DNA of 64,000 nt, taken from a phage. The stretch lies in sequence record PZ445440.1; one strand, 5' to 3'. Numbering within the stretch: the first letter of the stretch is position 1; each line of letters begins with the position of its first letter. The notes beneath the pieces are model-generated. The model saw only the letters and a program-made list of their open reading frames with translations, was not told the DNA's origin and did no database searches. Positions 1,779 to 20,933 of this stretch are shown here, piece after piece. The position numbers and the translations under genes are program-made.

Positions 1779-1924
1779 TACTCGCCTTTTAACACGTTAA
1801 GAAGAGCTAAGACCGCTAAGGTGCCTTGTGATACGGCCTGTTGAAATACTGTTGTTTCGCCTGTAACTAAAGTATTAACGAATAAAAACGACCAACACAA
1901 CAATGCAATAATCCATGTTACCAT
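1778..1924 (-). CDS. small hydrophobic membrane protein, 48 aa
   Basis: Hand translation MVTWIIALLCWSFLFVNTLVTGETTVFQQAVSQGTLAVLALLNVLKGE; its stop overlaps the start of the next small ORF. Confidence 0.35.
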   Translation of the reverse strand: MVTWIIALLCWSFLFVNTLVTGETTVFQQAVSQGTLAVLALLNVLKGE

Positions 1925-1975
1925 TTTATTACCTCAAAAATAAATTAAAGGGCCAACTTAATATGCCTGTATAAA

Positions 1976-2422
1976 TTAGTAACTCTGCAGAATGAATTTG
2001 AAATTATCTGCCAGAAGACGGTTCATTTCAGTGAGTGTTTGATATTCTGATGTATGATTGCGAGTGAATGCCAGAGCCAATTGTCCTTTACCATAACCAG
2101 TAGTCAGTGGTTTCATGTTCTTAGCTGCAACAAAAATTACATCATATTCAATATTGTTAGTGCCCATGGTGCGGGCTAGTTGCGAACGGCCTTGACGAAT
2201 GTGAGAAAGAATTGCATCCAACCCTTGTTTAGAACGTTGACGTCCTACAAAAAATCGTGCTGCTACTTGTCGCCAATCAGATGAACCTTTAACAAAGAAG
2301 TAAAAACCTTCACGAGAACGAAACTCTTTAGAAACTTCGGAACCGTATTCGCCATTACGAACTACTGCAACAACTTCACCGCCAACTGCCAGAAGGTCTT
2401 TACGAGTTAAATATTTGGACAT
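1976..2422 (-). CDS. ndd: Ndd nucleoid disruption protein
   Basis: 148 aa; motifs [25 protein letters not shown] and [32 protein letters not shown] match T4 Ndd from memory. Confidence 0.85.
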
Positions 2423-2498
2423 GCTAATTTCCTCAATTGATTAATGTTTTTGTAATCCATGAGAGCATTATACCCTGCTCTCAAGAGTTTGTACAATT

Positions 2499-2699
2499 TT
2501 ATTCGGCCATATCAGAACGTTCAAAAAGCTCTTCAACAGTTAAACATTCGGTGTCATCTTCAATAAAGAATCGAGTCCAACACGTTGGGGCAATACAGTT
2601 ATGAGTTTGTCCGGCGATAGAAGCTACACGAATAAGCTGCTGACCATTATTCAGAACAAATTTTTCACCAATTTCAACGTCTTTAAAAAGCTTAGCCAT
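2499..2699 (-). CDS. hypothetical protein (66 aa)
   Basis: ORF with GAGGAA Shine-Dalgarno and an early-type promoter upstream. Confidence 0.55.
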   Translation of the reverse strand: MAKLFKDVEIGEKFVLNNGQQLIRVASIAGQTHNCIAPTCWTRFFIEDDTECLTVEELFERSDMAE

Positions 2700-2727
2700 T
2701 TTGTGTTCCTCATGTTTCAGTAGGACT

Positions 2728-2757
2728 ACTATACCATAATCCTACCGTGATGTAAAC
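2728..2757 (-). promoter_or_regulatory. T4-type early promoter
   Basis: Minus strand GTTTAC (2757-2752), ~18-bp spacer, TATAGT; inverted repeat GTAGGA...TCCTAC around the -10. Confidence 0.45.
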
Positions 2758-2949
2758 AATTAAATTACATTAAAATATGTTAAAGCCAACCATGTTCCAG
2801 TGAACGAACATGCAATGTAAAAACCCGTATCGCAAATTGTTCTTAGTACAATAAGAAGTGCATTTTTCATAAGTACCTCAATACAATTGAAAATATTATA
2901 CAAATCATAGGGATACTAAGCAACCATATTCCGATCCACATTTTAGAGC

Positions 2950-3213
2950 TCATATCTCAACTTCCGCAAGTTCCATATATCCTTTGTTGATAACCTCTTT
3001 AAGGTCTTTAGAAAGAATAACACTAAAATGGTCGTTCATATGTCCATTAACTAAACGAGTTATTTCGGCTTCAGATGACATATAAGGCACGTCTGAGTCC
3101 CAATGAGATAGACCCAAATGGGTATAAATCATCCCTTCGTCATCTGTGGTGTTGTACATTGAAACAAACTCACCGGTCACTTTATGTTTTGCGTAGAAAA
3201 ATTTAAATTTCAT
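2950..3213 (-). CDS. hypothetical protein (87 aa)
   Basis: ORF in compact minus-strand gene array. Confidence 0.55.
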   Translation of the reverse strand: MKFKFFYAKHKVTGEFVSMYNTTDDEGMIYTHLGLSHWDSDVPYMSSEAEITRLVNGHMNDHFSVILSKDLKEVINKGYMELAEVEI

Positions 3214-4104: not shown

Positions 4105-5040
4105 TTATTCTGCAAATAATTCAGTAACGTCTGAAATTACTTCATAACGACAAGTACGCATCTTAGCATCACCATAGTCAACCGGGATGGATACAACATC
4201 ACGTGGATGAACTTTAACTTTCACAACTTTATCTGAGCTTGAACCAAAGTGGCGAATATAAGATTTAGCACAAACGTGGAGACCGCGAGAACAGGTTTGA
4301 GTATCATCGTCGTTAACTCGAGTACGAGGCATTGAAACAACTTTACCTGGGGAGTTATCAAATGTACCACTATAGCAGTCTAAATAGTCCTTACGAACTA
4401 CTTTCCATGCATAGAAATGTCCGTCTTCAGTGATTTCAATATCATTTGCAACCAAGAAGTCGAATAAACGTTGTACAGCTTTTTCGCTCGGGTTTTCTAA
4501 CAGGTTTTCAAGGAACGGCAGATAGAATTTAAAGTCTTCACCTTTTTCCATGGAATCAATAATACGGTTAACCAGTCCTGAACGAATCTCTATACCTTGA
4601 TAAAATAAACTACCACCTTCAATAGTAACATTACCATCAACAAACTTAGTAATAGCTTTCTTGACGTTAATAAGTTCGACAGCTTTACTAAGGTTTCCTG
4701 CGACCAGATTAGCTTTAATTTCTTCAAAATTTGCATGACTTGATGGGGTCGCATTGTATGCTACGCGTCCTTCAATAATTGAAATAAATTTAGATGACGC
4801 GTTCCATACGATTTCAGGACGGTGTCCGCCGATAATAGGTTCATCATTTTCTGGGATCTGTTCTTCGTCTTCAAATTCAGCTGCTTTCTCTTCAGCTTTA
4901 AAATTCTTAACAATCTTACGAAGAGTATCTGTTGAAATGTCGAAGTAATCGGCAATTTCTTTACGAGTCCATTTGCCTGATTCAACCAGGCCGTAAGCTT
5001 CTAACTGTTCTTCTTGGGACAAGCATTTAATATTGTACAT
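4105..5040 (-). CDS. rIIB: rIIB membrane-associated protein
   Basis: 311 aa (T4 rIIB 312 aa as I recall); adjacent to rIIA; synteny. Confidence 0.85.
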   Translation of the reverse strand: MYNIKCLSQEEQLEAYGLVESGKWTRKEIADYFDISTDTLRKIVKNFKAEEKAAEFEDEEQIPENDEPIIGGHRPEIVWNASSKFISIIEGRVAYNATPSSHANFEEIKANLVAGNLSKAVELINVKKAITKFVDGNVTIEGGSLFYQGIEIRSGLVNRIIDSMEKGEDFKFYLPFLENLLENPSEKAVQRLFDFLVANDIEITEDGHFYAWKVVRKDYLDCYSGTFDNSPGKVVSMPRTRVNDDDTQTCSRGLHVCAKSYIRHFGSSSDKVVKVKVHPRDVVSIPVDYGDAKMRTCRYEVISDVTELFAE

Positions 5041-13997: not shown

Positions 13998-14675
13998 TTA
14001 TCGCTGTTTTACACTTAACGGGTCAGGATTCTCAGGGACATCTTCAAGGCCAAGCGCATAACGCTGAGCATATTTTAACATCAAAATATCTTTAGCACAA
14101 TCATGAATACTATCATGGGCAACGAATCCTTTTAGCGTACCCATCGGTAATGGACACATACTTAATCCTCGTGTCAACGAGTAAGCTTCGATTGCCGTAC
14201 GAATATCACGTTGAGCCCAGAATTTAACAGGTTCTAATTTATCGGTATCAATATCTGGTTCAAGAACACCTTCATCACGATAGAGGTCACGAATCAAATC
14301 GACTAAGATCGGGAAGTCAAAGCTCATACCACGGCACCACATCTGTGATTTCCATTGGTCAACTTTATTAGCTCGACAATAATCTAAAAAGATTTTAATG
14401 CCTTCAAGCGTAGTGACATCATCTTCAGACGGAGCCAGGTTTTTACGTGCTTCTGCTGATTGTTCTTTCCACCATTTCATAGTGGATTTAGCGAAAACTC
14501 GCTTCCCTTTCTGAGAAGCTAGATTAAATTTAATTCGCTTACCTCGTTGAACAAGTTCTTCAAATGATTCAACAACTTCAGGGTCGGAATTATATGCAAT
14601 AACCGCAAGGTCAATAACAGCCGCTTTTGATGTATTGCCGAATGTTTCAAAATCTATAATAACATCAGTGCTCAT
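13998..14675 (-). CDS. dexA: exonuclease A (DexA)
   Basis: 225 aa (T4 DexA 227 aa as I recall); DEDD-like N-terminal DFETFG; immediately downstream of dda as in T4. Confidence 0.75.
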   Translation of the reverse strand: MSTDVIIDFETFGNTSKAAVIDLAVIAYNSDPEVVESFEELVQRGKRIKFNLASQKGKRVFAKSTMKWWKEQSAEARKNLAPSEDDVTTLEGIKIFLDYCRANKVDQWKSQMWCRGMSFDFPILVDLIRDLYRDEGVLEPDIDTDKLEPVKFWAQRDIRTAIEAYSLTRGLSMCPLPMGTLKGFVAHDSIHDCAKDILMLKYAQRYALGLEDVPENPDPLSVKQR

Positions 14676-14684
14676 AATTTTCTC

Positions 14685-15998
14685 TCAAATAAAATGGACG
14701 TCAAAACGACCACGAGTTGTGCCGACATACAATAACTGTTTAGCTAATTCTGAATCGGCATAATGGATACACGGCGTATAAACAAAGGCCGTGTCAACAG
14801 ACATACCCTGGGCCTTATGGAAGGTTGATACAGGTAGTGCCTTCACCTTAGTGAACATACGTTTAGCATCCCAGAATTCGCTCCATGGGGCTTTACCACC
14901 TTTATTCCAAAATTTGTATGTTTCTGCGGTCTTAGCCAAAAACAAATTGAATTTATAAAGCTCTTCTTCAGAAGAAATAACCTTTATATCTTCGCGGATG
15001 TATTCTTCATCATCCCCATATGTTTCTACTGTAAGATTCCAGTATCGTATCATATATTCGCCTGAAACACCACGTGCTTTAACGAATGTAGACGTTTCTA
15101 CAGCATCTCGAATACGAACGAATTGCCCGTTATTGAAAAGCATTTCAGTCATATTTTTGCCATCTAGCTTGTACGTCTTAGTAAACGGCTCTTGTAGAAC
15201 AATGACTTCGTCTTTAATAAATGGTTTTTCTGTTTCAAGAAGTTTTCGGCGAATAATTGAATTTAACTTGTCCACCGACTTATTTGTGAATGCCATCATT
15301 CGATTTTCGAAAAGGTCTTCAGGAGTTTTAACGACGTTAAAATAGTTCATCATATACGATTTAAGGTCTGTATACCCATGAACACCGTGTCCATCAACTA
15401 CTTTATCGTAAATCCATTTGCCATTACGAATATCAGTCGCAACATCAATAATTGGTGCATTGCTACGTTTAACTTCTGTAAGGTTGCATTGCACGAAGTC
15501 TTTGTGAGTGAAGAAAGGACTTAGATATGCAGTTGATTCGCCTGGGTCTACCGGTCGAATCTGGCATCGGTCACCAATTCCAATTACTGTGCACCATTTA
15601 GGGATACTAGCTAACATTATTTTAAACAGAGAACGGTCGCACATTGATGCTTCATCAAATAACAGTACACGACACAAGGCTAAGTCGGGAACCTTTTTCT
15701 GTTCAAACAATACGTTTTCTTCGTATGTAGTTGGGTTGATTTTAAGAATGCTATGAATAGTCGATGCTTCTTGACCTGCAAGTTTGCTTAGAACCTTTTT
15801 AGCTGCATGTGTAGGGGCTGCTAAAATAATACCTGATTCTCCAGAAGAAATAAGGGCTTCAACGATGAATCTAGTAAGGGTTGTTTTACCTGTACCAGCA
15901 GGCCCATTAATAGTTACGTGATGTTTCTTTTCTTTAATAGCGTTCATAACAACATTGAAGGCGTTTTTCTGGCCGTCAGTCAAATCATCAAATGTCAT
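14685..15998 (-). CDS. dda: Dda SF1B DNA helicase
   Basis: 437 aa; MTFDDLTDGQKNAFNVVMNAIKEKKHHVTINGPAGTGKTT nearly identical to T4 Dda N-terminus from memory. Confidence 0.95.
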   Translation of the reverse strand: MTFDDLTDGQKNAFNVVMNAIKEKKHHVTINGPAGTGKTTLTRFIVEALISSGESGIILAAPTHAAKKVLSKLAGQEASTIHSILKINPTTYEENVLFEQKKVPDLALCRVLLFDEASMCDRSLFKIMLASIPKWCTVIGIGDRCQIRPVDPGESTAYLSPFFTHKDFVQCNLTEVKRSNAPIIDVATDIRNGKWIYDKVVDGHGVHGYTDLKSYMMNYFNVVKTPEDLFENRMMAFTNKSVDKLNSIIRRKLLETEKPFIKDEVIVLQEPFTKTYKLDGKNMTEMLFNNGQFVRIRDAVETSTFVKARGVSGEYMIRYWNLTVETYGDDEEYIREDIKVISSEEELYKFNLFLAKTAETYKFWNKGGKAPWSEFWDAKRMFTKVKALPVSTFHKAQGMSVDTAFVYTPCIHYADSELAKQLLYVGTTRGRFDVHFI

Positions 15999-16306
15999 CG
16001 TAAAGTCCCTGCAATTGGAATACTAACAATACGGCCTGTGTCCAGGATTCGTTGATACAATCTTTGCGTCTCCGCATCTAGTTTAATGTGTTTCATTTCA
16101 AGCTTATTAAACCAGAACTTACGCGGAGTTTCGACCATTCTTAGAACTCCCATTTTTAAATCTGTTTTATACTGTGTTTTCAAAGTATCGAAAACTTTAT
16201 CTGCAATATCCTTTCTAAAAAATACTGCAGGACGATGCTCATCAAGTGGAACCGGGACAGTAAATCCTTCCATATCTCGATAAACTATTGCATATACATA
16301 AACCAT
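15995..16306 (-). CDS. dda.1: Dda.1-like hypothetical protein (103 aa)
   Basis: 4-nt overlap with dda start; synteny. Confidence 0.6.
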   Translation of the reverse strand: MVYVYAIVYRDMEGFTVPVPLDEHRPAVFFRKDIADKVFDTLKTQYKTDLKMGVLRMVETPRKFWFNKLEMKHIKLDAETQRLYQRILDTGRIVSIPIAGTLR

Positions 16307-16308
16307 AA

Positions 16309-17055
16309 TTAACCTTTAATCAGTTGGAATAATAATGCGCTAAGTGGTAAGCCACGTTTCAATTTTAATTTACCAATGAAACCAATCTTTTCAAAACGTT
16401 GCAGACCTTGGATAACTTTATCATATGTATCGAAAAGCGATTCAGCGTCAGTTAATTTAGTTTTAGTTTTCCAGTCAGAGCCTTTAAGAAGAACGTTGAG
16501 TTTAGTAAGTTCATGGCCTTCTGCTTGATGTGAGCCGTTAATGCGTGCTTTCAAAGCAACAATTCTAAGTTTAGATTCGTTAGATAAAGGTTGATTTTTC
16601 ATCATGTTCGCCATATGCTTAACACGATTTTCACGTTTTGCTCGGATTTTTAAAATAGTACCATAAACCTTTTTAATTTGGGCCCATTTCTTCTCGTCGA
16701 GATTAAGTTTCTCTACTTTACGGGCAGAAGGATTAGCGATACGTCTTGCAACGGCATCACGTTTCTCAATAAGTTCTTCTAATGTTAAATCAGAACGAGC
16801 TGTGTTATATTTTTTCTTAACCGGGATAACATTACCTTTAATGTAGCCTATATCATTATTAAAACGTTCTAAGGATAATTTCTCACCTTCAACAGAGTTA
16901 TTGAAAGATTCACCTGAGTAAGCGCAGACCTTTTGATCAAGAATGTTTTTAAGGTAATTAAAGTCTAAGTTAAAATCCTTAGAGCGTCTCTTCGCAGAAG
17001 CTCTGGTGTGGTCAAGACGACGATTGATTTTGTTAATTTTATTATTTGATAACAT
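16309..17055 (-). CDS. srd: basic protein, possibly Srd (sigma-decoy) by position
   Basis: 248 aa, Lys/Arg-rich; located between dda.1 and modA as in T4; identity not verified. Confidence 0.45.
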   Translation of the reverse strand: MLSNNKINKINRRLDHTRASAKRRSKDFNLDFNYLKNILDQKVCAYSGESFNNSVEGEKLSLERFNNDIGYIKGNVIPVKKKYNTARSDLTLEELIEKRDAVARRIANPSARKVEKLNLDEKKWAQIKKVYGTILKIRAKRENRVKHMANMMKNQPLSNESKLRIVALKARINGSHQAEGHELTKLNVLLKGSDWKTKTKLTDAESLFDTYDKVIQGLQRFEKIGFIGKLKLKRGLPLSALLFQLIKG

Positions 17056-17207
17056 AATATTTTCCTCTGTCTTACGGACGTTAGGACATTTAGCTGATAA
17101 GCTTATAATATCATGCCCTCAGGTAGTGTACACTCTTTTTTCATAAAATGCTTTAATTTTTTATGTGTTATAATGGTTCTGAGTTCCATCCGGTTATTCC
17201 AATTCAG

Positions 17208-17816
17208 TCAGTAACTGACAATAGACAGATTCCAGATTGTATAACTTCCATCCTGAATAATAGAATCTACACGCAGTGTAGTCCCTATAGGGAGCATAAA
17301 TTCACATTCGTCAGATATAAGTCTAGCATTAGACCGTCTTGTCGCTTCAGGGAAAGCTCCATTGAACTCACAAGATGGCGCAGCCAGAATCATGTTAAGC
17401 ATATGTTCACGGAAGTTGAAAGCAAATGGTGCATCTTTGATGCAGAACATATTAAATGTTCCGTAAAAATTATACGAAGCAAAGTTACGTGCTACACCGA
17501 ACACTGGACTGAAGCTCATTACTCTGTCAAATTTAATAATACTACCAATGCCTTTATCATCGAGTGTGGCCATAGTTTTCTTAGAGATTCCACGATACAT
17601 TGTCTCAGGAACAGAAGACGTCCAATTTCTACGAACGATTGAACTTAAATCTTGTTGGATGCTATCAGGCTTGTTTTCCATACACTGCCACAGTACACTT
17701 TGTTCAATGTCGCTGAATTGCTCATCGATTTTGTACTGAAGCATATCTTGATAATCTGGACATTGGGCACGACGAACCATTTCTTCAATTTCACACTCGT
17801 TATACGGCATAAACAT
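17208..17816 (-). CDS. modA: ADP-ribosyltransferase ModA-like
   Basis: 202 aa; motif LW.C...TSSVPETMYRG shared with adjacent paralog; T4 modA/modB synteny. Confidence 0.7.
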   Translation of the reverse strand: MFMPYNECEIEEMVRRAQCPDYQDMLQYKIDEQFSDIEQSVLWQCMENKPDSIQQDLSSIVRRNWTSSVPETMYRGISKKTMATLDDKGIGSIIKFDRVMSFSPVFGVARNFASYNFYGTFNMFCIKDAPFAFNFREHMLNMILAAPSCEFNGAFPEATRRSNARLISDECEFMLPIGTTLRVDSIIQDGSYTIWNLSIVSY

Positions 17817-17873
17817 TTAGGTTTCTCCTGTGGTTGATAAAGGTATAGTATCATCATCGGAAGAGTTTGTACA

Positions 17874-18455
17874 CTAAAAATTCAACATTTTCAAATGAAT
17901 GATTTTGTATAATCGAGATAAAGGGTCATATTCTAAGTCTTCAATTTCCACAATCTCAAATCTAGAGATACCTGAGACCATGTACTCTTGTTCAGATTCA
18001 ATCATATCTAGGACGTCAACACGCGTTTCTTCCATAACATGCTTAGGGTTCTTTCCGGCGAGTACAATGTTAACCATGTTTTGGTAGTAATCAAAAATGA
18101 ATGGAGCATTCCTGAGACTAAGAATAGTGTACGTCTGATATTCCCATCTCCCAGAGAATTGACGAGCTGTACTGAAATCAGTTGTGAACGATGTTACTCG
18201 TCCAGGAGACCAATGGCATCCAACAGAAAGAAGGGAAAGACGTTCTACTTCTTCTGGAGTTACACCACGGTAGAGTTCTACTGGTACTGTAGAAGTCATA
18301 TGCTTACGAACAAGATGGTCTAATTCATAGTGGAAATCCGGGTCTTCCTTAGAATCGGTGCAAGCCCAGAGAATGTTTTGTTCTTGGCGGGTGAATTTGC
18401 TATCAATCAGATTTGTTAGGTATTCGCGTTCTTGAAGTTCAGATTGACATGTCAT
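17874..18455 (-). CDS. modB: ADP-ribosyltransferase ModB-like
   Basis: 193 aa; paralog of the preceding gene (ILWACT...TSTVPVELYRG). Confidence 0.7.
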   Translation of the reverse strand: MTCQSELQEREYLTNLIDSKFTRQEQNILWACTDSKEDPDFHYELDHLVRKHMTSTVPVELYRGVTPEEVERLSLLSVGCHWSPGRVTSFTTDFSTARQFSGRWEYQTYTILSLRNAPFIFDYYQNMVNIVLAGKNPKHVMEETRVDVLDMIESEQEYMVSGISRFEIVEIEDLEYDPLSRLYKIIHLKMLNF

Positions 18456-18531
18456 GATAGACCTCCATTTAAAGATAAGTCTATCATAACACGAGAGGAG
18501 GGAATGTAAACTACTTTTTAAGCTTTCCTAC

Positions 18532-18675
18532 TAAAGGCCCATCAGGACTAGGTTGTTCTAACATGAATAAGGATGCTTTAAAAAGCAATGTCAACCCTTT
18601 CACCATTCGATACCATGTCTCAAAGTCTTTTTCCTTGATTTCTAGTAAGAATTTCTCTTTAAATTTCTCTTTCAT
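18532..18675 (-). CDS. small Lys/Glu-rich ORF (47 aa), doubtful
   Basis: Hand translation MKEKFKEKFLLEIKEKDFETWYRMVKG...; ATGA overlap with upstream stop. Confidence 0.3.
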
Positions 18676-18860
18676 TTCCAAGGACTCCATGGTGGAGGGT
18701 CGTCATAATAAGATGCAAGGTCTTTCAGGGCTTCAACAGGTAAACTAAAGCCGTGTCGTTGTATAATACTATCTAGTTCATCAACAAGTTCACTACGATG
18801 CACTTTAGGAGCCTCAACTTCAGGCTCGTCAAACATACTCATAAGGTCCATATTATTCAC
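18672..18860 (-). CDS. hypothetical protein (62 aa)
   Basis: ORF in gene array. Confidence 0.5.
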   Translation of the reverse strand: MNNMDLMSMFDEPEVEAPKVHRSELVDELDSIIQRHGFSLPVEALKDLASYYDDPPPWSPWK

Positions 18861-18913: not shown

Positions 18914-19318
18914 TTAAAAAATTTCCAAATAGCTCGTTGCAAATGGACTAAATCTGCTAATGATGTAATAAAGTATTTTTTTGGCAAAATACTTATGGTC
19001 TCGCTTTTCAAACAAGTCTAAACGCTTTTCAGGATTCACATAAACTGCATTTTCCGTAGATTCATAACCTAAGTCCTTTATGCCTTCTTCAAGACTAAAT
19101 GGAGAATTTTTAGAACGAGTAATAGCTCCAACTCGCTCTACACGAATTTTGTAACCTTTAGGAATCTGCAATTTGTAGAATTCTTCTACGATATATTGCG
19201 GATTATTTAGACTTTTGTTAATTAGAATAGCTATTTCTAGTGGAGTCTTATCTTCCACTGGTATATGTTTAAACGATTTGGCTTCAAGCAAATACATTTT
19301 AAATAGCATAGCATCCAT
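18914..19318 (-). CDS. hypothetical protein (134 aa)
   Basis: ORF in gene array. Confidence 0.55.
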   Translation of the reverse strand: MDAMLFKMYLLEAKSFKHIPVEDKTPLEIAILINKSLNNPQYIVEEFYKLQIPKGYKIRVERVGAITRSKNSPFSLEEGIKDLGYESTENAVYVNPEKRLDLFEKRDHKYFAKKILYYIISRFSPFATSYLEIF

Positions 19319-20040: not shown

Positions 20041-20277
20041 TTAACCACTTACTGGTGTAGGGGTAAACATTGCAGCGTTCTTAGTTTTCCAGTCAGCTGC
20101 ATCAGAAACTACAGTAGAATAAGCTGCCTTTTCTGATGGAAAGATTTGGTAATGAGCATCAGCAATCCGATGTTCGTTTGAATAAATCTCAAACGGTACG
20201 GAAACTTCCATACCTTTAACTTCTTTACCTTCACCCGCAGGATGCGTAAAGGTTTTGATGTTTACATAACCACCCAT
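20041..20277 (-). CDS. soc: Soc small outer capsid protein
   Basis: 78 aa; GYVNIKTF...HYQIFPSEKAAYSTV matches T4 Soc motifs from memory. Confidence 0.9.
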   Translation of the reverse strand: MGGYVNIKTFTHPAGEGKEVKGMEVSVPFEIYSNEHRIADAHYQIFPSEKAAYSTVVSDAADWKTKNAAMFTPTPVSG

Positions 20278-20322: not shown

Positions 20323-20844
20323 TTAGTAACCATTATCCTGACGTTCAAAGTTGTGTTGGTTTTTCAGATAATACAGTTTGAAGATTTCTTCAGCAGAAAG
20401 TCCTAGACCTTGGAACATATTCAGAACAAAGTGGAGGATATCAATCATCTCGAATTTAATTTCAAGCTGGTCTTCAGGAGACAGTTCATCGATACGACGA
20501 TTTCGATATTCAGCATGTTGTGCTTTCCAAGGCTTCCATACAGAGCTAGCGGCTTTTTCACCATTGCTCATACCGCCGAGTGAAGTCAGCAGTTCACGGA
20601 ATTCATCATCAATATAATCTTTCTGATTACGCAGCCAATCAACAACATCACCAGCAGTAGCCAATTCATCAGGATGTTTGTTATGTTCAGGCTTGTCATT
20701 TGCCAGACGAACCTGTAAAGATTTCTGCATATCAAGCATTACCTGCAGTGGGTCTTTATCTTCGTGAATCAGAGCATTAAAATAAGCTTCTTCTGCTTTA
20801 TCAACACCAGAAATAAGTTGTGAACATTCGTTAAAGTGTGCCAT
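20323..20844 (-). CDS. 56: dCTP pyrophosphatase gp56 (MazG-like)
   Basis: 173 aa from MAHFNE... with AAGGA SD (T4 gp56 about 171 aa as I recall); synteny between soc and gene 61. Confidence 0.75.
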   Translation of the reverse strand: MAHFNECSQLISGVDKAEEAYFNALIHEDKDPLQVMLDMQKSLQVRLANDKPEHNKHPDELATAGDVVDWLRNQKDYIDDEFRELLTSLGGMSNGEKAASSVWKPWKAQHAEYRNRRIDELSPEDQLEIKFEMIDILHFVLNMFQGLGLSAEEIFKLYYLKNQHNFERQDNGY

Positions 20845-20933
20845 TATTTTTCCTTTCAATTCAGTATAAGAGAGTTTAATTCTAACATTAATTTTATAAA
20901 GCGTAATAAATAATAGGTAACTAAGGAGATATT

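Follow-up and report, generated by a model that had tools for sequence, protein, structure and literature searches.

The DNA considered here is a stretch of 64,000 nucleotides from a phage (sequence record PZ445440.1), called below the window. Between positions 16,309 and 18,455, it carries three adjacent genes, srd, modA and modB, corresponding to a gene cluster known from phage T4. The first encodes Srd, while the products of the two others, designated here ART-1 and ART-2, are predicted ADP-ribosyltransferases (ARTs). A first-pass annotation made from the sequence had described a host-takeover cluster with three open reading frames (ORFs) in this region. The ORF calls agree exactly with the positions that it gave, all three being on the minus strand:

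16309..17055, minus strand: srd, 248 aa (bas46_0116 in MZ501056.1), with its ATG at 17055 and a GAGG upstream at 17067-17064
17208..17816, minus strand: gene in the modA position, encoding ART-1, a predicted 202-aa mono-ADP-ribosyltransferase of the R-S-E class
17874..18455, minus strand: gene in the modB position, encoding ART-2, a predicted 193-aa mono-ADP-ribosyltransferase of the R-S-E class ('host protein ADP-ribosylase', bas46_0118)

The stretch that contains these genes is 100% identical at the DNA level to Escherichia phage ChristianSchoenbein (Bas46, MZ501056.1), an RB69-like phage (Straboviridae, Tevenvirinae, Mosigvirus). RB69 itself (AY303349, NC_004928), whose record labels the genes srd, modA and modB, is 98.4% identical. 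More generally, RB69 and the other Mosigvirus genomes, including MZ501056.1, share 98.4-100% DNA identity across the whole 2.7-kb stretch and have the same ORFs, without any substantive difference. The ART genes are 94-100% identical across about 150 Mosigvirus genomes. The annotation of MZ501056.1 mentions a putative anti-sigma factor Srd, an RNA polymerase ADP-ribosylase ModA and a host protein ADP-ribosylase.

The gene order dexA-dda-dda.1-srd-modA-modB…mrh-soc-56 agrees with that of T4 (dexA-dda-dda.1-srd-modA-modB…mrh-soc). The stretch is thus very probably a conserved cassette for early host takeover in a T4-type phage (Straboviridae, Mosigvirus), of the known srd-modA-modB type. This cassette is already known and annotated in MZ501056.1 and RB69 and is ordinary for this group of phages.

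Catalytic signature and family of the two ADP-ribosyltransferases

The two ART genes had been proposed to be tandem paralogs. BLASTP aligns their products with 32% identity over 147 aa (E=2e-26, 88 bits), far above chance. Both proteins are small (about 23 kDa) and acidic. The motif LWxC...TS[ST]VPxxxYRG, on which this proposal was based, is present in both ORFs, as LWQC (residues 42-45) and TSSVPETMYRG (66-76) in ART-1 and as LWAC (29-32) and TSTVPVELYRG (54-64) in ART-2.

Alignment with the T4 enzymes also bears out the suggested relationship with ModA and ModB, at least as homology, with E values ranging from 8e-10 to 1e-35. ART-1 matches T4 ModB with E=1e-35 (112 bits) and T4 ModA with E=2e-20 (72 bits, 33% identity). 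In the same way, ART-2 matches T4 ModB with E=5e-28 (92 bits, 38% identity) and T4 ModA with E=8e-10 (42 bits). Furthermore, both proteins match phrog_832, 'RNA polymerase ADP-ribosylase', with E of about 1e-38 (5.9e-38 for ART-2). Scans of Pfam-A and NCBIfam returned nothing for Srd, ART-1 or ART-2, the Pfam-A copy scanned being one without the PF26816 model. According to precomputed Pfam assignments, close homologs of ART-1 carry PF26816.

The residues expected for catalysis lie at the following positions of the window, all on the minus strand:

17592-17594, 17514-17516, 17307-17309 and 17301-17303: codons of ART-1 R75, S101, E170 and E172
18267-18269, 18189-18191, 17991-17993 and 17985-17987: codons of ART-2 R63, S89, E155 and E157

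The R-S-E triad, whose absence would have spoken against the initial assignment, is intact in both proteins. In a four-way alignment with T4 ModA and ModB, the invariant residues include R75, G76, S101, E170 and E172 (ART-1 numbering). Among 37 family members sharing 20-60% identity, the sole invariant columns are R75, G76, S101, Y118, E170 and E172. The equivalents of the triad are R63/S89/E155-x-E157 in ART-2, R72/S96/E163-x-E165 in T4 ModA and R73/S99/E171-x-E173 in T4 ModB. The catalytic arginine ([YW]-R-G, strand beta-1) is R75 in ART-1 and R63 in ART-2, and is invariant in the 37 sequences. The Ser-x-Ser/Thr motif involved in NAD binding is S101-F-S in ART-1 and S89-F-T in ART-2, its first serine being invariant. 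Glu-x-Glu is E170-C-E172 and E155-Q-E157, respectively, and both glutamates are invariant. An E-x-E in the ARTT loop marks the arginine-specific subclass of ARTs. By analogy with characterized enzymes, ART-1 and ART-2 would therefore carry out NAD-dependent transfer of ADP-ribose to protein arginines.

The R-S-EXE signature has been given for ModA and ModB (PMC10468400). The arginine of YRG, which had been taken for the catalytic arginine of ARTs, aligns with R73 of T4 ModB, and the R73A/G74A mutant of this enzyme has lost its catalytic activity and leads to a smaller burst size (PMC10468400).

ART-1 has the ART catalytic fold in a structure predicted with very high confidence. ART-2 probably adopts the same fold, judging from the alignment that it shares with ART-1. 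The family profile, searched against PDB sequences, gave nothing significant (best E=0.19), nor did Srd, and no structure of ModA, ModB or Srd appears to have been solved. It could be asked whether one or both ARTs are inactive pseudo-enzymes kept for binding. This is extremely improbable and was rejected: R, S and ExE do not vary at all in the family, the two proteins of the window included, the fold of ART-1 is predicted with very high confidence, and the genes are highly conserved over the Mosigvirus genomes mentioned above.

When 1.84 billion representative proteins were searched with a profile built from both paralogs and their homologs, only 66 clusters (50% identity) were retrieved. The ModA/ModB family is therefore narrow. 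A second homolog search, with the 37-sequence alignment, gave only 16 proteins and added little. The weakest profile matches are ART-like stretches in large multidomain proteins that carry Pfam PF01129 (NAD:arginine ADP-ribosyltransferase) or PF03496 (ADPrib_exo_Tox), which provides a transitive link from the phage ARTs to curated families. These most distant relatives are ART domains of very large multidomain proteins (2,500-4,300 aa) that are presumably polymorphic toxins; one other is a NUDIX-ART fusion (P0076).

Identity falls to 10-19% with the R-S-E toxins of the cholera-toxin-like, ARTC group (VIP2, C3 exoenzymes, iota toxin Ia/CDTa, Vis, Certhrax, HopU1, Tre1) and with mammalian ART2.2. 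Unlike the ARTC toxins, the phage enzymes have an N-terminal helical region of their own, of about 65 residues, and would act within the infected cell instead of being secreted.

Within the window, only the ORFs of ART-1 and ART-2 match the family profile. T4 Alt (NP_049811), the third ART of T4, is functionally related, as it acts on Arg265 of the RNA polymerase alpha subunit, and Alt-sized proteins are found in the phrog_832 profile (length 1480). However, Alt is not encoded in the window. The alignment to T4 Alt that had been suggested as a check turned out to be uninformative: even with the HMMER filters off, it gave only a marginal match of the ExE segment (1.5 bits), beyond which the proteins are not alignable, and Alt was dropped as a reference.

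Correspondence of ART-1 and ART-2 with T4 ModA and ModB

T4 ModA (NP_049635) and ART-1 are both encoded next to srd. Their catalytic residues align (R72/S96/E163xE165 with R75/S101/E170xE172) and both carry an FP[DE]…SDExE segment. By contrast, the N-terminal region of ModA is divergent, with LLIHC in place of VLWQC. T4 ModB (NP_049636; RNAylating NAD--protein ADP-ribosyltransferase) has the same R-S-ExE residues, R73 aligning with R63 of ART-2 and R75 of ART-1, and ART-2 occupies the same srd-distal position behind a conserved early-promoter-like element. Nevertheless, ART-2 is only 38% identical to ModB and lacks the extra residues that ModB has just before ExE (YEDTDGLD region). Moreover, the protein of the window that scores best with ModB is ART-1, not ART-2.

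Several results thus weigh against a simple equation of ART-1 with ModA and ART-2 with ModB. Raw similarity puts both ARTs nearer to T4 ModB (112 and 92 bits) than to T4 ModA (72 and 42 bits), and in Tequatrovirus genomes it is modB that tblastn of ART-1 hits. A neighbour-joining (NJ) tree of 49 taxa (100 bootstraps) did not separate a ModA from a ModB lineage; its deep nodes have low support and both T4 proteins lie on long branches. In addition, identity to the T4 enzymes is just 26-38%. Finally, over its first 65 residues ART-1 shares 41% identity with ModB and only 25% with ModA, and a quartet analysis limited to this region gives no clear pairing; given this region, target specificity may depart from the ModA/ModB labels.

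The pairing was therefore examined by a quartet four-point test, which is robust to unequal rates and was used in place of the NJ tree for this question. With the four sequences, ((ART-1, ModA), (ART-2, ModB)) was recovered in 913 of 1000 bootstraps, the swapped pairing in 36 and the independent one in 51. With clade-averaged distances, the positional pairing was found in 462 of 500. In the catalytic core (residues 66-202), the positional pairing was recovered in 983 of 1000 bootstraps, the swapped one in 10 and the independent one in 7. Likewise, the strictly informative sites number seven for positional, two for swapped and three for independent duplication. Gene order (ModA srd-proximal, ModB srd-distal) and quartet bootstraps hence agree, and the labels are given because of position and quartet analysis, not because of best-hit similarity. 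They are probably right as statements of orthology. The sequences are consistent with a single old duplication, after which ART-1 and ModB would have evolved slowly and ModA and ART-2 fast.

An alternative is that the pair of ARTs goes back to a duplication of its own, separate from that of T4 modA and modB, or that their order was swapped, so that neither would be a one-to-one ortholog. In the NJ tree, the ART-1 and ART-2 clades do lie closer together than they do to ModA or ModB of T4, the copy number varies by genus (the Gelderlandvirus STML-198 has a single ART), and the 'independent' quartet has a slight lead in the N-terminal region (559/1000). However, the whole-protein and core quartets and the informative sites given above all count against it, and the deep NJ nodes combine low support with long branches. 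Moreover, ART-1 is nearer to T4 ModB (112 bits) than to its neighbour ART-2 (88 bits), which a recent independent duplication would not predict. This alternative is quite improbable.

Another possibility accepts the orthology and questions what it implies, the ModA/ModB labels being functionally non-transferable. The N-terminal helical region of ART-1 resembles that of ModB and is probably ancestral, so that the targets of ART-1 could be those of a ModB-type enzyme or a wider set. ART-1 would have kept an ancestral ModB-like recognition region, while the narrow specificity for the RNA polymerase alpha subunit would be derived in the fast-evolving ModA of Tequatrovirus. RB69-like phages would then possess two ModB-like enzymes, with Alt alone for Arg265 of alpha. 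The scores of ART-1 with ModB and ModA, the N-terminal identities, a near-identical FxDxEQSVLWQCME segment shared with ModB, the long branch of T4 ModA and the 'modB' names that UniRef and GenBank give to ART-1-clade proteins all point in this direction. On the other side, the core quartet joins ART-1 with ModA at 98%, both have the srd-adjacent position, and the nearest relatives of T4 ModA beyond its own cluster are ART-1-clade proteins; in addition, the N-terminal region is a putative determinant of target choice. Such a functional divergence is considered rather unlikely. Under the favoured orthology, the transfer of target specificity from T4 at this level of identity is nonetheless to be made with caution.

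The number of ART genes at this locus varies among genera of Tevenvirinae. Dhakavirus has the same ART pair, as have Mosigvirus and Tequatrovirus, and Gelderlandvirus has a single one. In Salmonella phage STML-198 (Gelderlandvirus; 2501-3133 of the compared locus L005), the lone ART lies between the mrh-region genes and srd. Phage IME540 (1877-3115 of the compared locus L004) was also taken into this comparison.

It should be stressed that public names are inconsistent, UniRef and some GenBank records calling ART-1-clade proteins 'modB'. The note of MZ501056.1 on bas46_0118, the gene in the modB position, reads 'ModA'. In the records of AV116, ST2, mogra, moha, JM10 and NicPhage, one gene here is named 'molybdenum ABC transporter, periplasmic molybdenum-binding protein'. 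Most likely, the gene is that of a modA-type ART confused with the bacterial ModA because of the shared name, an annotation artefact that was then propagated.

Srd and its N-terminal domain

The third gene had been described as encoding a basic 248-aa protein in the position of T4 srd. The protein is indeed basic (pI 10.1; 53 K+R versus 27 D+E), its gene sits between dda.1 and modA, and it aligns with T4 Srd over the full length, with 68% identity across 247 aa (E=4e-123). It also matches phrog_1400, 'Srd anti-sigma factor' (E=1.4e-98). T4 Srd (NP_049634) has the same length, the same position and the same upstream promoter-like element. The difference lies in the start: the T4 protein begins M-K-L-S and that of the window M-L-S, one codon shifted. 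The codons read here ATT-ATG-TTA-TCA (17053-17058 region), the usable start having moved by one codon relative to T4. In MZ501056.1, the coding sequence starts at the ATT (17058), one codon 5' of the ATG at 17055.

The 'anti-sigma factor' or 'sigma decoy' label found in databases is a historical postulate, the T4 record itself speaking of a 'postulated decoy'. No sigma-70 region family was detected in Srd by Pfam scan (E≤10), nor did its sequence match any sigma factor in PDB. A sigma-like Srd was thus ruled out at the level of detectable sigma-domain similarity. T4 Srd is reported to bind the N-terminal half of RNase E and to stimulate host mRNA decay (Qi et al. 2015, cited in PMC13232886). 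For the T4 protein, experiments thus support RNase E as the target rather than RNA polymerase, and stimulation of this enzyme rather than an anti-sigma role. By analogy, Mosigvirus Srd would function as a stimulator of RNase E.

From its N-terminus, the protein comprises a conserved domain (about residues 9-106), a long hairpin of helices (121-190) and, at the C-terminus, a further helical region. In its AlphaFold2 model (pLDDT 86.5), the conserved block is predicted to form a β-β-α unit that is followed by the long helical hairpin. Residues 4-157 match PHROG families labelled endonuclease, HNH endonuclease and endonuclease VII (E=4e-18 to 4e-11). Conversely, there is no match to a Pfam HNH family, and the domain profile found no match among PDB sequences.

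A canonical HNH or His-Me-finger nuclease has a catalytic histidine at the end of beta-1 together with metal or zinc ligands. The conserved block of the Srd family (C44…L-E63-R64-F-N67…G70-Y71…G74-N75-V76…N84…R87), compared with this motif, has no conserved histidine, and thus lacks the canonical catalytic one, and has a single conserved cysteine. The distant homologs of the domain have I-D-R-x-D and likewise lack the histidine. The N-terminal domain could be a catalytically degenerate His-Me-finger (HNH-like) module that was repurposed to bind RNase E or RNA. Like the separate proposal of a ModB-like or broader range for ART-1, this is a speculative and somewhat doubtful reading. A literature search pairing Srd with HNH found no paper.

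Domains homologous to the N-terminal domain of Srd (about residues 5-106, positions 16738-17043) occur in unrelated phages. For example, they are found in Klebsiella phage RCIP0039, where the gene adjoins that of a T7-like RNA polymerase, and in Pseudomonas phage PN09.

Expression signals, flanking genes and proposed role in host takeover

Sequences resembling early promoters lie upstream of modB and srd, and a weaker one lies in the spacer between modB and modA:

18483..18510, minus strand: early-promoter-like element upstream of modB (TTTACA, 16 nt, TATGAT, with TG), followed by a GGAGG Shine-Dalgarno sequence and the ATG at 18455
17845..17873, minus strand: weak promoter-like element (TGTACA, 17 nt, TGA-TACTAT) in the 57-bp modB-modA spacer (17817-17873)
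17824-17828, minus strand: Shine-Dalgarno sequence AGGAG, modA's own, downstream of the spacer element
17105..17132, minus strand: early-promoter-like element upstream of srd (TGTACA, 16 nt, TATTAT, TG before the -10), with AAAGCATTTT 5' of it

The modB element is the best match of the scan (10 of 12 consensus positions plus TG), and it is conserved with the region upstream of T4 modB, as AAAAAGTTGTTTAC…GATATGATAG…GGAGGCTATCATG. The srd element is similarly conserved with the region upstream of T4 srd (AAAGCATTTT…GTTTACA…TATAGTATAAG). What weighs against these calls is that they are consensus matches, and the total for the region (13) is not above that expected from shuffled sequences (12.0±3.6). 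It is therefore the conservation with T4, and not the scan, that speaks for promoters. T4 early promoters are UP/-35/TGn/-10 promoters (PMC2988021), a description that the elements upstream of modB and srd fit.

The spacer element, with 8 of 12 consensus positions, is below the threshold of the scan and is at best a candidate promoter, weakly indicated by its sequence. In contrast, the two genes adjoin without a spacer in T4, where the start codon of modA and the stop codon of modB overlap (ATGA; 4508-4511 of the T4 locus L002), which suggests translational coupling of modA to modB.

The genes that flank the cassette in the window are:

13998-14675: DexA exonuclease
14685-15998: Dda helicase
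15995-16306: Dda.1/Y01A
18914-19318: Mrh
20041-20277: Soc
20323-20859: gp56 dCTPase (start in MZ501056.1 five codons downstream of the TTG given by the ORF finder)

Between modB and mrh (18511-18860), there are also two small overlapping minus-strand ORFs of 59 and 62 aa. They are annotated as hypothetical proteins of 54 and 59 aa in MZ501056.1, and their position is that of T4 modA.2-modA.4.

By analogy with T4, transcription of the cassette would run leftward along the minus strand, starting at early promoters of the sigma-70 type, with host RNA polymerase reading modB, modA and srd early in infection. ART-1 and ART-2 would be arginine-specific mono-ADP-ribosyltransferases of the R-S-E class. 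Each would bind NAD+ and, by means of its conserved arginine, Ser-x-Ser/Thr and Glu-x-Glu loop, transfer ADP-ribose to arginines of host proteins.

ModA-type enzymes modify Arg265 of both alpha subunits of RNA polymerase, so that these no longer contact UP elements and activators (PMC2988021). A substrate that ModB-type enzymes ADP-ribosylate is ribosomal protein S1, and in T4 they also attach NAD-capped RNAs to S1 and L2 (PMC10468400). The T4 record additionally names EF-Tu and trigger factor as ModB targets. These specificities, i.e., the alpha subunit of RNA polymerase for ModA and S1, EF-Tu, trigger factor and RNAylation for ModB, are established in T4 only (PMC2988021, PMC10468400). By orthology, ART-1 would modify Arg265 of both alpha subunits, and ART-2 would modify ribosomal protein S1, EF-Tu and trigger factor and might attach NAD-capped RNA (RNAylation). 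Srd, like its T4 ortholog, would stimulate RNase E and thereby host mRNA decay. The analysis itself establishes homology, synteny, catalytic residues that are intact and, for ART-1, the ART fold, while enzyme activity, targets, timing of expression and the interaction of Srd with RNase E are transferred from T4.

The cassette is thus a textbook host-takeover element of the T4 type, and the value of its analysis is mainly confirmatory and cautionary. The names ModA and ModB have been assigned inconsistently in Mosigvirus and Dhakavirus genomes and, as specificities have been measured only for T4, the transfer of function at 26-38% identity has to be regarded as hypothetical. T4 ModB is of current interest as an RNAylating enzyme, and the two divergent, intact paralogs of Mosigvirus are useful natural variants for mapping the acceptance of NAD-RNA and the choice of targets. 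If ART-1 does have a ModB-like or broader range, possibly including RNAylation, the alpha-specific ModA would be an innovation of Tequatrovirus.

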